Origin: Promethearchaeota archaeon
GTDB taxonomy: Archaea > Asgardarchaeota > Lokiarchaeia > Sigyniarchaeales > SOKP01
Assembly: GCA_029838195.1 (NCBI GenBank)
Contig: JALGVJ010000030.1
Coordinates: forward strand, 1 to 48,436
DNA: 48,436 nucleotides
Direction: 5' to 3'
Under the pieces are notes generated by a model. It searched no databases and was not told where the DNA came from. It saw only the letters and a program-made list of their open reading frames with translations. Within the stretch, counting starts at the first letter, position 1. Each line of letters starts with the position of its first letter. A program made the position numbers and the translations under genes. This document shows positions 44,647 to 47,053 of the stretch, piece after piece.

Positions 44647-45756
44647 ATGGCTCCTATATTCTATATCTTATTAGGTTTAATTCTTTTGAGTATTTTCAAA
44701 ATAGGATACGGAATCCTCTGGTATAGATCTCGAGCCCCATTTTATTTAATTATTGTTATAATTACCATTTTTTTTACTTGGGACATCCTTTTTTCCTCCT
44801 TGCTTTTTCTTTCTCATTATGGAAATTTAAAGGAAGAAACAGCCTTGTTCACATGGAGATTGGCCGTAATTACCGAATTATTCCTAACTTTCCTTGAAAA
44901 TGGAATTCTTATAATCATTTTAGATCAAAAAAAAATTGGATATTTTTCAATTTTTATTTTAAGCATCTTAATAGGGGCGATTTTAAGTTTCTTATTTACC
45001 ATGCCTGATCTGGTTTCAATTCTCATGAGAGATGATGGTTATTATTTTATTCCTTCTCTTTCTTTAAAAACAATCATAATTCTTTATCAAATAACATTAA
45101 TGGGTTTTTTCATTTATTCCCACGTTCAAAGTTGGTATAAAATGAGTAAAGAACAAGGTTCATATTTTTTCATGTTAATTACGGGATTACTACTCTTGTT
45201 GATCATTTTTTTCTCATGGTACCTTATTGCAATGAATGAAATTTTCATCTTCCTTATTTTTCTTCTATTAATTAGTAGATCCTTAAGCTCATTAATTTTA
45301 TACATGAAAAAACCTAATCCCTTCATTCATCTATCAAATCAATTAGAAAACTTAATCATCTTCCATAAATCCGGCATATTATTATTTTCTTATAATTTCG
45401 AAATGAATAAGGAACTCGAAGAATCTTTTTTAAAAGGCTCAATTTTAATTGGAATAAATCATGTATTAAATAATTTCATTGATGGGAAAAGCTCTTTAGA
45501 TTACTTGAAAATCCATGAAAAATATGCGTATTTTGATTTTGATGAGCATCACGGGTATGCGATTTTAATCATTGCTAAACTCGTAAATAATTATTTGAAA
45601 AAATTAATTAAAAAATTCATGATATTATTTACGGAACACAATAAGGAATATTTGGAAGAAATAAATTCTAACATGGGATTAATAGATGTTTCAAAATTCC
45701 ATTCTACTCAAGAACTAATCCTGGAAGTATTTAAAATTTTCATGAATCATCGCTGA
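44647..45756 (+). CDS. 7TM protein with C-terminal cytoplasmic longin-like domain (paralogue A)
   Basis: Seven hydrophobic segments, then LIIFHKSGILLFSY..., ILIGINHVL and HGYAILIIA. Confidence 0.8.
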   Translation: MAPIFYILLGLILLSIFKIGYGILWYRSRAPFYLIIVIITIFFTWDILFSSLLFLSHYGNLKEETALFTWRLAVITELFLTFLENGILIIILDQKKIGYFSIFILSILIGAILSFLFTMPDLVSILMRDDGYYFIPSLSLKTIIILYQITLMGFFIYSHVQSWYKMSKEQGSYFFMLITGLLLLLIIFFSWYLIAMNEIFIFLIFLLLISRSLSSLILYMKKPNPFIHLSNQLENLIIFHKSGILLFSYNFEMNKELEESFLKGSILIGINHVLNNFIDGKSSLDYLKIHEKYAYFDFDEHHGYAILIIAKLVNNYLKKLIKKFMILFTEHNKEYLEEINSNMGLIDVSKFHSTQELILEVFKIFMNHR

Positions 45757-45946
45757 ATTTCTCGTGTTTTATTCTCTAAATGGAAGTTCGACTCCCTGGT
45801 TTAAATTTGGAATTCTTTCCTTTCCTTTTGGATGTTAAAAAATTTAAATTTTGACAAAATATTATTAATATAATTATTTATAAATTTCGAAATCTTGAGT
45901 ATGATTTGGTTGGAAAAGCTATAAATTAATTTAAATCATTTAATTC

Positions 45947-47053
45947 ATGAATCTCGTAGCCATTATATTAATTGTGGGTAATTTTACTTCAGTTATTTTT
46001 AGTAGCTTTATTGCCTTATCCATTTTTCTTAAAAAAGAGCATTTTCCTACCTTAATTTTATTCATTTTAAACATCCTAATGGTTTTTCTCGTGGGAATCT
46101 TTTTCTCTTCTCTTTATACCCTTTCTCTTACAATATTATTTTCACCTTCCATTAATATTGCATTATGGAAATGGGCTATATTTGTTTTTTATTTGTTTTT
46201 AGAAAATGGGCTTTTCATTATATGTATCTCTCAAGAAGATTTAAAATGCTTGCTATTAAATATTTTTATCTCGGCGTTTTTTCTCAGCATGTTAATGGGA
46301 GCATTGCTTGCTCCCGATTCAATTCTAATATTGTCCAACGAGCCCCTTTTTACTTTTTATCATGCCGACTACATTCAATTTTTACTAGTCCTATATTCCT
46401 CAAGCCTGATCGCCTTATATCTTTATTTCACTTTAATTCACTATTTTCTTAGAACAAAGAATTTTCCGAAAAGAATGGTCCCGCTTACTATCTTATTTAT
46501 TATTCCCATAATCACTTACTTGATTAACGTATTATATTTTCCACCTTTTCTTATCTTGACCCATCTTTTCTTCATCTGGTTTGTAAATAGTTTTACAATG
46601 ATTATAATGTTAAGAAATCCGGAACTTTTCTTTAATATCGCTTCTAATGTATATTCCATTAATGTTTATCATAGGAGCGGGATTCTCTTGTTTTCCCATT
46701 TATTTAATAAAATCAATAAAAAATCAAAATCTACTAAATGGGGGCAAATTTTAATTGGATTGAATCACATTCTTTCTGAATTTGTCGAAAAGTCAGATAA
46801 AATCGATCTTTTAAAAACAAGAGATTTTGAAATCATTGTTAAGTATGTTGAGTCGCACGGGATCGCCATTTTAATAATCGCAGACAGGAAAAATCTTATT
46901 TTAAATAAAATTCTTGATAAATTTACTCAGGAATTTGTAAAAAAATTCGATCAAGAGCTATTAGAAATAACGGATTTAAATAAATTAATTAATCTTTCGG
47001 AATTTAAAGGAGCTGATGAGCTCGTAAAAAAACATTTTACTATTTATTTATAA
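45947..47053 (+). CDS. 7TM protein with C-terminal cytoplasmic longin-like domain (paralogue B)
   Basis: Same architecture; INVYHRSGILLFSH, ILIGLNHIL, HGIAILIIA and shared FLENG in TM3. Confidence 0.8.
   Translation: MNLVAIILIVGNFTSVIFSSFIALSIFLKKEHFPTLILFILNILMVFLVGIFFSSLYTLSLTILFSPSINIALWKWAIFVFYLFLENGLFIICISQEDLKCLLLNIFISAFFLSMLMGALLAPDSILILSNEPLFTFYHADYIQFLLVLYSSSLIALYLYFTLIHYFLRTKNFPKRMVPLTILFIIPIITYLINVLYFPPFLILTHLFFIWFVNSFTMIIMLRNPELFFNIASNVYSINVYHRSGILLFSHLFNKINKKSKSTKWGQILIGLNHILSEFVEKSDKIDLLKTRDFEIIVKYVESHGIAILIIADRKNLILNKILDKFTQEFVKKFDQELLEITDLNKLINLSEFKGADELVKKHFTIYL

Follow-up and report, generated by a model that had tools for sequence, protein, structure and literature searches.

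Asgard archaea encode longin and roadblock proteins alongside dozens of small GTPases resembling those of eukaryotes; we know of no lipid anchors on these GTPases, and how such switches may be held and set at a membrane is the question raised by the locus considered here. The window analysed, that is, the whole stretch of 48,436 nucleotides (positions 1 to 48,436, forward strand, of contig JALGVJ010000030.1, assembly GCA_029838195.1), comes from a Promethearchaeota archaeon and contains a tandem pair of genes, here termed A (upstream) and B (downstream), whose products are each predicted to join a seven-transmembrane (7TM) domain to a C-terminal longin domain (Table 1). As an initial annotation made from the letters alone had claimed, the two genes are adjacent and co-oriented, and their products, of 369 and 368 residues, are diverged paralogues (28% identity over ~345 residues, BLASTP E 1e-31). 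Identity falls from 36% in the tail to 16% in the membrane domain, and neither protein has any match above threshold in NCBIfam or Pfam. Our answer to the question, which we regard as evenly poised between right and wrong, is that the A/B pair is a membrane-integral longin platform that docks a small GTPase, with fast-evolving 7TM parts as its input.

The soluble tails, of ~140 residues, had been read as longin-like with the order beta-beta-alpha-beta-beta-beta-alpha-alpha, and both structural models, Foldseek and VIA-align agree with that reading. In the AlphaFold2 model of B, built with 38 relatives (predicted local distance difference test, pLDDT, 82.7; predicted template-modelling score, pTM, 0.72), residues 235–363 follow the order beta1-beta2-alpha1-beta3-beta4-beta5-alpha2-alpha3, five-stranded and with no helix before beta1; the tail of A, modelled alone with AlphaFold2 (residues 8–141; pLDDT 78, pTM 0.76), has the same order. 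Nearly all Foldseek matches of the full B model are longin folds (adaptor protein (AP) sigma, TRAPP Bet5/Trs23/sedlin, zeta-COP, Mon1-Ccz1 and Ykt6), the remainder being G-protein-coupled receptors (GPCRs), and for the A tail every match listed, at ranks 1–50, is a longin fold, with E values from 3.7e-4. By VIA-align, which is independent of Foldseek, the A tail (residues 7–144) matches ~30 longin entries at Z 9.8–13.2, including SRX (Z 13.2), CPLANE Fuzzy/Inturned (12.7), Mon1-Ccz1 (11.5), TRAPP Bet5 (11.4), AP mu/sigma, BLOC-3, the longins of Sec22, VAMP7 and Ykt6 (Z 10–11) and the solved Lokiarchaeal longin dimer 8yqg (Z 9.8). Roadblock domains scored lower than longins (Z 7–8), and the roadblock/LC7 layout, with a helix before beta1 and one C-terminal helix, is not that of the modelled tail, in which beta1 lies 11 residues after the seventh transmembrane (TM) helix and two to three helices follow beta5.

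Sequence comparison provides a bridge from these tails to a genuine longin. The B tail reaches Intu_longin_1 (19.9 bits against a cutoff of 23.7; E 9e-4) and Sybindin (15.5 against 25) below the Pfam thresholds, and the same two families are matched, again weakly, by four of the 38 relatives. Searched by sequence against the bank of solved structures, the whole-family and tail profiles gave no match of note (chlorophyll synthase, E 1.1; CyaY and Rpb6, E 0.1–0.2). A profile of distant family members matches soluble, tail-only proteins encoded in the source genome (hidden Markov model E 1.5e-8), and a soluble relative of 141 residues on contig C46 of that genome (L058:1222-1644, minus strand) passes Fuz_longin_1 (27.1 bits; cutoff 26.1) and aligns with the tail profile over 111 columns (hhalign E 7e-4), an alignment that takes in both the HKSG-like start and the C-terminal DVSxF helix. 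Given the fold match for both tails and this bridge through a soluble relative, the tails, as modelled, are longin domains. The other soluble relatives of the tail in the source genome are a protein of 263 residues combining a longin-like domain with a V4R domain related to Bet3/TRAPPC3 (L059:1252-2040, plus strand) and one of 244 residues combining a longin-like domain with a winged helix-turn-helix (L060:1302-2033, plus strand).

The membrane domain of B is modelled as seven long helices (residues 3–28, 36–61, 67–95, 99–120, 141–168, 173–197 and 200–223), and its Lys and Arg residues are confined to loops 1, 3 and 5 and the tail; from this positive-inside pattern the N-terminus is predicted to be outside and these loops and the tail to be cytoplasmic. 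VIA-align of B residues 1–229 with GPCR-type bundles gave Z 14–17 (root-mean-square deviation (rmsd) 3.2–4.2 Å over 205–223 residues), and the GPCR fold accounts for 48 of the 50 best VIA-align matches of the 7TM part, which include GABA-B, adhesion GPCRs, GPR156 and LYCHOS; Foldseek matches of this part to GPCRs were weak (E 0.008–0.05). Because helical bundles without kinship may reach ~Z 13–14 by arrangement alone, we describe the membrane part of A and B, on the strength of the model, as a receptor-like (GPCR-type) seven-helix arrangement, homology to GPCRs being unproven. Neither A nor B matches a 7TM family in Pfam or NCBIfam (7tm_1/2/3, Frizzled, Dicty_CAR and others), and none of the 38 relatives does so in Pfam; HisKA_7TM (PF16927) in particular found no match in A or B at E<=10, nor in the 38 relatives at E<=1. 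In a language-model protein atlas the TM part is nearest to HisKA_7TM clusters at 0.84–0.85, a score below the reliable range and without confirmation from Pfam. The seven helices proposed in the initial annotation therewith stand, with a GPCR-like arrangement and the C-terminus predicted to be inside, whereas comparison with GPCR and PF16927 profiles, the two kinships it had suggested checking, gave no match. About ten stand-alone relatives of the TM part, of ~245 residues, were also found; their matches are weak (E 2e-4 to 0.8), most have no longin or GTPase neighbours, and they are not used as evidence here. At another place in the source genome (C92:55560-56834, minus strand) a 250-residue seven-helix open reading frame (ORF) lies directly upstream of a 136-residue longin-like ORF and may be a split version of the 7TM–longin fusion, its 7TM match (E 0.78) being not significant.

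An exhaustive profile search of 1.84 billion proteins returned 575 cluster representatives at E<=1e-3, and the A and B ORFs can therefore be taken as real genes. Word-indexed searches yielded 17 relatives of the B type and over 177 of the A type; every one comes from an Asgard metagenome bin, has ~360–385 residues and bears no product name. No cultured organism figures among the best 80 species-genome loci, which is no demonstration of absence. Since distant relatives align over their full length, the 7TM domain and tail form a conserved unit. The sequence motifs quoted in the initial annotation are present, and those of the tail proved near-invariant across 38 members (H-x-S-G-x-L-L, also written H[KR]SG.LL; G-x-x-L-I-G; G-x-A), whereas the FLENG motif is genus-specific. 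This motif, which contains a buried Glu, occurs in the third TM helix of both A (44890-44904) and B (46196-46210) and is missing from orthologues of other genera. Gene conversion was considered as its common origin and rejected, the best nucleotide identity over 15 codons being 0.67 with different codons; the shared motif is therefore a parallel or co-adapted change.

The source genome holds exactly two copies of the A/B subfamily, and among 301 sampled genomes of the phylum, 67 of the 68 that belong to the same taxonomic family carry the A/B protein family. Conservation of the pair in related genomes was a point on which the initial annotation had agreed to stand or fall, and the pair is conserved: the order A then B is fixed in all 12 wide loci, which come from nine other genera of the taxonomic family. 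Wherever both genes lay within the part of a locus that was read, orthologous pairs are co-oriented, with a gene of ~367 codons first and one of ~368–385 codons second, separated by 16 to ~350 bp. Maximum-likelihood analysis unites the 28 downstream copies in a single clade (Shimodaira–Hasegawa-like approximate likelihood-ratio test, SH-aLRT, 99), the upstream copies, with which A groups, lie on the other side, and the two sub-trees mirror each other; the duplication is thus older than these genera, and the order has not changed since then. The only copy in one genus diverges immediately below the A/B duplication, and one related genome has three tandem copies of 369, 369 and 380 residues (L031:7480-11003), the middle one grouping with the upstream type. 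Among longer relatives, a tandem pair of 556 and 553 residues (L045:6803-10316) has ~190–240 additional N-terminal hydrophobic residues and possibly represents double seven-helix forms, and a metagenomic relative of 630 residues (P0277) has a C-terminal alpha/beta-hydrolase domain; the extra domains of the longer relatives were uninformative.

The A/B pair is one of three pair types. The source genome also contains a pair of the C1 type, with genes encoding 384 and 367 residues and no gap between them (L055:4143-6928, equivalent to contig C1:240142-242927). The 367-residue protein is linked to the A/B family by hhalign (probability 90%, E 1.8e-6); its upstream partner shows no link to the C9 family profile alone (hhalign E 0.1), and its placement rests on a TM profile that includes the gene and on the tree. 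This type occurs in 12 of the 13 genera of the taxonomic family; 30 loci were examined, and among the complete ones essentially all have a tight tandem pair with the genes 0–30 bp apart. The third type, with two genes of 360 codons separated by 22 bp, was found in four genomes of one genus (L037, L040, L052 and L054, at ~7400-10200 in each). When all are placed in one tree, each pair type has its own clade (support 99 for each) in which the two members are nearest to one another, and members from other Asgard families are single. It follows that tandem duplication with retention of both copies has taken place three independent times, a pattern typical of a homodimer becoming a heterodimer. Together with the fixed gene order, these recurrent pairs suggest, at the level of sequence, that A and B probably form a dimer of this kind. 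The low confidence with which alpha1, the least confidently placed element, is positioned in both monomer models is what would be expected of a surface that needs a partner.

An alternative to a heterodimer, although we consider it somewhat unlikely, is that A and B act as separate homodimers or monomers, that is, as two receptors with different inputs and a common output. The contrast between 16% identity in the TM domains and 36% in the tails fits this division of labour, the TATA-like, AT-rich stretches within the 190-bp spacer make separate promoters possible, and the genome with three tandem copies and the genus with a single copy count in its favour. Yet no genus having the duplication has lost either copy or changed their order, and the sub-trees mirror each other; the same outcome has been reached three times, and the C1-type genes lie as close together as those of obligate partners. 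Moreover, the known longin platforms for GTPases are heterodimers of paralogues, as in Mon1-Ccz1, Bet5-Trs23 and Fuzzy-Inturned, and the appearance of a lineage-specific ENG in the third TM helix of both paralogues hints at co-adaptation.

The evidence linking the 7TM–longin family to small GTPases is circumstantial and comes, from gene context, by way of the sister subfamilies. In the source genome a convergent Ras gene of 176 codons overlaps the end of the second gene of the C1-type pair by 4 nt, and a Ras-like gene flanks C1-type pairs in three genera (g1, g3 and g7, with a fragment of 70 residues in g6), in both co-directional and convergent arrangements. The third pair type, found in genus g5, has a Ras-like gene of 183 codons 20–30 bp from its end, and one single-copy member from another Asgard family (f7) is flanked by a Ras-domain protein of 998 residues. 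The orthologue in the source genome of the g5-flanking GTPase (60% identity) lies elsewhere, in a cluster of Ras-like genes (C42:85357-85902). The flanking GTPases were also considered as a single family of orthologous partners, a view that was rejected: they are different paralogues, and the association has therefore arisen more than once. Against a background in which 2.6% of genes have a GTPase gene within 300 bp, adjacency in three of ~10 clades gives P ~0.002, a post hoc figure from clades that are only roughly independent.

The initial annotation had pointed instead to a gene for a fusion of roadblock and Rab-like domains ~8.5 kb from the pair. Such a gene does exist (Table 1), but as a specific partner of the pair it found no support. 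It lies on the opposite strand, with five genes between it and the pair (for a metallo-beta-lactamase-fold protein, a SWIM protein, an SNF2 helicase, HisB and a DNA methylase), and in the source genome, which encodes ~68 GTPase-like proteins, 21.7% of genes lie within 8.5 kb of a GTPase gene and 8.7% within 2.5 kb. All eight wide loci that reach far enough (8 of 13 loci, or 8 of the 12 with the pair) have the gene to the same side, and in genera g2 and g5 it is ~2 kb away, with only the methylase and, mostly, a small TrmO gene between. The order across the taxonomic family is Roadblock-Ras, SWIM-SNF2-HisB (optional), methylase, TrmO (optional), A, B, and the rest of the neighbourhood, encoding the functionally unrelated RDD/zinc-ribbon protein, LeuA-like synthase and P-type ATPase, is equally conserved. 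An operon of the pair with the Roadblock-Ras gene was rejected on the grounds of strand, intervening unrelated genes and membership of a general syntenic block.

Besides the post hoc nature of the clade counts, several observations weigh against docking of a GTPase by the A/B pair. With the whole neighbourhood equally conserved, the position of the Roadblock-Ras gene can be plain inherited synteny, and its distance of 8.5 kb from the pair is not in itself significant. Nine of 20 distant loci have no GTPase gene within reach (up to ~8 kb where the contig allowed), and most C1-type loci have none within 1.5 kb. The A tail has no Pfam longin match and the B tail is likewise below every Pfam longin threshold. 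Finally, many longins do not regulate GTPases, among them the SNARE longins and AP sigma/mu, the latter at the top of the Foldseek list.

An alternative that we judge unlikely is that A and B serve as sensors or adaptors in the membrane and that a non-GTPase partner is bound by their longin tails (coat-like, SNARE-like, ESCRT-related or a peptide), the adjacency of Ras genes being coincidental or subfamily-specific. The best Foldseek matches, the AP sigma/mu N-terminal domains and zeta-COP, are structural or cargo-binding longins, the Sec22, VAMP7 and Ykt6 longins also reach Z 10–11 in VIA-align, the A/B pair itself has no adjacent GTPase gene, and function is not given by fold alone. On the other side, the top VIA-align scores belong to GTPase-binding longins (SRX, Fuzzy/Inturned, Mon1-Ccz1 and Bet5), whose direct partners are SR-beta, Rab23, Ypt7 and Ypt1, respectively; the only Pfam families touched are of the Intu/Ccz1, Fuz/Mon1 and Sybindin types; and adjacency to a Ras gene recurs in three clades.

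We hypothesize, then, that the pair is a GTPase-docking platform in which A and B would be two subunits of one membrane complex, each consisting of a seven-helix bundle with its N-terminus outside and a C-terminal longin domain in the cytoplasm. The two longins would most likely pair, in the manner of solved longin/roadblock domains, into a flat heterodimeric platform at the inner face of the membrane, and this platform would most likely dock a Ras/Rab/Rag-like small GTPase, anchoring it at the membrane and perhaps changing its nucleotide state. Input would enter through the fast-evolving seven-helix parts, which may respond to a ligand or a lipid, or to the state of the membrane. Within this scheme, dimerization of A with B is probable, and binding of a GTPase is suggested more weakly. 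The initial annotation had gone further and proposed a heterodimeric 7TM receptor whose longin dimer acts as a platform of guanine nucleotide exchange factor (GEF) or GTPase-activating protein (GAP) type. A specific form of this, in which the dimer would act directly, with no intermediate, as the GEF or GAP for a Rab/Rag-like GTPase, we find doubtful and unlikely. If it were true, the result would be a receptor–GTPase circuit in which a signal from outside or from the membrane sets the state of the GTPase directly, a prokaryotic forerunner of membrane-anchored longin/roadblock platforms (Ragulator/LYCHOS-GATOR1, TRAPP and the signal recognition particle (SRP) receptor), and it would explain the recruitment of Asgard GTPases to membranes.

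The 7TM domain, proposed here as the input module, contrasts with the tail in its conservation. Column identity peaks in the tail (0.82 in beta1-beta2 and 0.79 in alpha1), and the TM domain is the fastest-evolving part of the protein (0.43, against 0.62 in the tail); conserved polar or charged residues are nearly absent from it, and conservation is limited to W74, G114, S60, S125 and the K-K-P junction. It is highly improbable that the 7TM domain is a transporter, a lipid-handling protein or an enzyme that the longin tail only regulates or localizes: the 50 top VIA-align matches do include the organic solute transporter Ost-alpha (Z 14.1) and the PAQR hydrolase adiponectin receptor 2 (Z 14.1), at scores that unrelated helical bundles also attain, and longer relatives do carry further TM segments or an alpha/beta-hydrolase domain, but the conserved TM columns contain no PAQR-like His/Asp metal site, so rapid a rate of change is unusual for a catalytic or transport core, and the other 48 matches are receptor-type bundles.

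Several known systems resemble the proposed platform in part. The tri-longin GEFs and TRAPP, that is, Mon1-Ccz1 (the GEF of Rab7/Ypt7), CPLANE (Rab23), BLOC-3 and TRAPP Bet5-Trs23 (TRAPPC1/C4), share the longin fold (VIA-align Z 10–12.7 over ~125–130 residues), account for the only Pfam signals of the A/B family and, like A and B, which are encoded together, consist of two diverged paralogues. The tri-longin GEFs differ in having three longins per subunit, whereas A and B have one, placed after the 7TM domain and followed by nothing further; the eukaryotic longin complexes are soluble and peripherally recruited, whereas the A/B longin is fused to an integral seven-helix domain; and the A/B sequences fall below every curated threshold. 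The best structural match of the A tail is SRX of the SRP receptor (2go5, Z 13.2, rmsd 3.0 Å over 119 residues; also 5ck3 and 1nrj), a longin that works at a membrane with a small Arf-like GTPase, SR-beta. In the SRP receptor, however, the membrane anchor is on the GTPase and the longin is soluble, whereas in A and B the anchor is on the longin; A and B also lack an NG domain and any sequence similarity to the receptor.

For the membrane half, LYCHOS/GPR155 with Ragulator offers a GPCR-like seven-helix bundle coupled at a membrane to longin/roadblock control of Rag GTPases, and LYCHOS is itself among the VIA-align matches of the TM domain (8wr3, Z 14.8; 9lhq, Z 14.0). LYCHOS has in addition transporter-like and DEP domains and acts on a separate longin complex, GATOR1, whereas A and B carry their longin in the same chain as the bundle; the likeness lies in the logic, with no demonstrated homology. 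HisKA_7TM (PF16927) and 7TMR-DISM proteins likewise have an N-terminal seven-helix module followed by a cytoplasmic output domain, but the output of A and B is a longin and not a kinase, cyclase or phosphodiesterase. Eukaryotic GPCRs share the seven TM helices and the orientation predicted for A and B, N-terminus out and C-terminus in, the output of A and B being the fused longin domain. The soluble longins and roadblocks of Asgard archaea come from the same organisms and domain superfamily, and the soluble longins of the source genome are detectably related to the tail.

The longin and roadblock architectures described from Asgard archaea are soluble, occurring alone or fused to a GTPase, to TRAPPC3/V4R or to two-component domains, and the main text of the two reports concerned mentions no membrane-embedded longin (Tran et al., 2024, PMC10933270; Liu et al., 2020, bioRxiv 10.1101/2020.10.19.343400). 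The former also notes that Asgard GTPase genes are rarely in informative operons and that expressed Asgard proteins were not targeted to membranes in HeLa cells (PMC10933270). A 2026 preprint mentions '7TM proteins' in Asgard archaea and a structural cluster labelled 'class C GPCR', and describes no longin fusion (10.64898/2026.10.28.762692). In the literature searched we found no description of a seven-helix longin protein, and the 7TM–longin fusion is a new domain architecture made from known parts.

Table 1. Positions in the window of genes A and B, their domains and the neighbouring genes discussed
Feature	Position	Strand	Basis
Gene A, upstream member, 369 aa	44647-45756	+	ORF; 7TM and longin tail; family profile E 4e-113
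A membrane domain, ~seven hydrophobic helices, residues 1-222	44647-45312	+	Hydropathy segments; aligns to modelled 7TM of B without large gaps
A longin domain, predicted cytoplasmic, residues 226-369	45322-45753	+	AlphaFold2, VIA-align, Foldseek
A-B spacer, 190 bp, AT-rich	45757-45946	.	Sequence
Gene B, downstream member, 368 aa	45947-47053	+	ORF; 7TM and longin tail; in downstream-copy clade, SH-aLRT 99
B seven-helix bundle, residues 3-223, N-terminus predicted outside	45953-46615	+	AlphaFold2 model; Lys/Arg pattern; VIA-align
B outward beta hairpin, loop 4, residues 126-139 (modelled)	46322-46363	+	AlphaFold2 model
B longin domain, predicted cytoplasmic, residues 235-368	46649-47050	+	Model secondary structure; Foldseek; sub-threshold Pfam
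Roadblock-Ras fusion GTPase, 318 aa, candidate partner	35183-36139	-	Pfam Ras 5e-41, Robl_LC7 3.6e-6
Eco57I/N6-type DNA methylase, 637 aa	42453-44366	-	Pfam; divergent neighbour upstream of pair in 12/12 wide loci

Of the remaining neighbours, the methylase next to the pair is probably functionally unrelated to it. It has a TaqI-like specificity domain, no endonuclease domain was noted in it, and it behaves as a vertically inherited orphan methylase, unlike a mobile restriction system. The block between the methylase and the Roadblock-Ras gene (36442-42372) comprises the metallo-beta-lactamase-fold gene, the SWIM zinc-finger gene, the gene for an SNF2 helicase of 1090 residues with DUF3670, and HisB. 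Most genera other than g2 and g5 have its SWIM-SNF2-HisB part; the loci read in those two lack it, and in one g7 locus HisB is all that remains, so that the part is an insertion/deletion polymorphism of the neighbourhood. Downstream, an ORF of 163 codons convergent with gene B (47089-47580, minus strand) matches nothing in Pfam and has no equivalent among the 12 syntenic loci.

The A/B pair is a concrete candidate for the missing membrane end of Asgard GTPase switches, and the GTPases with which it might work can be named: those encoded by the Ras genes that flank the sister pairs and by the Roadblock-Ras gene near A and B. Should the coupling to GTPases prove true, the logic of such platforms as TRAPP, Mon1-Ccz1 and Ragulator would be older than eukaryotes and would have existed in membrane-integral form. 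Should it prove false, the family would still constitute a large class of 7TM proteins that is specific to Asgard archaea and has an unusual output domain.

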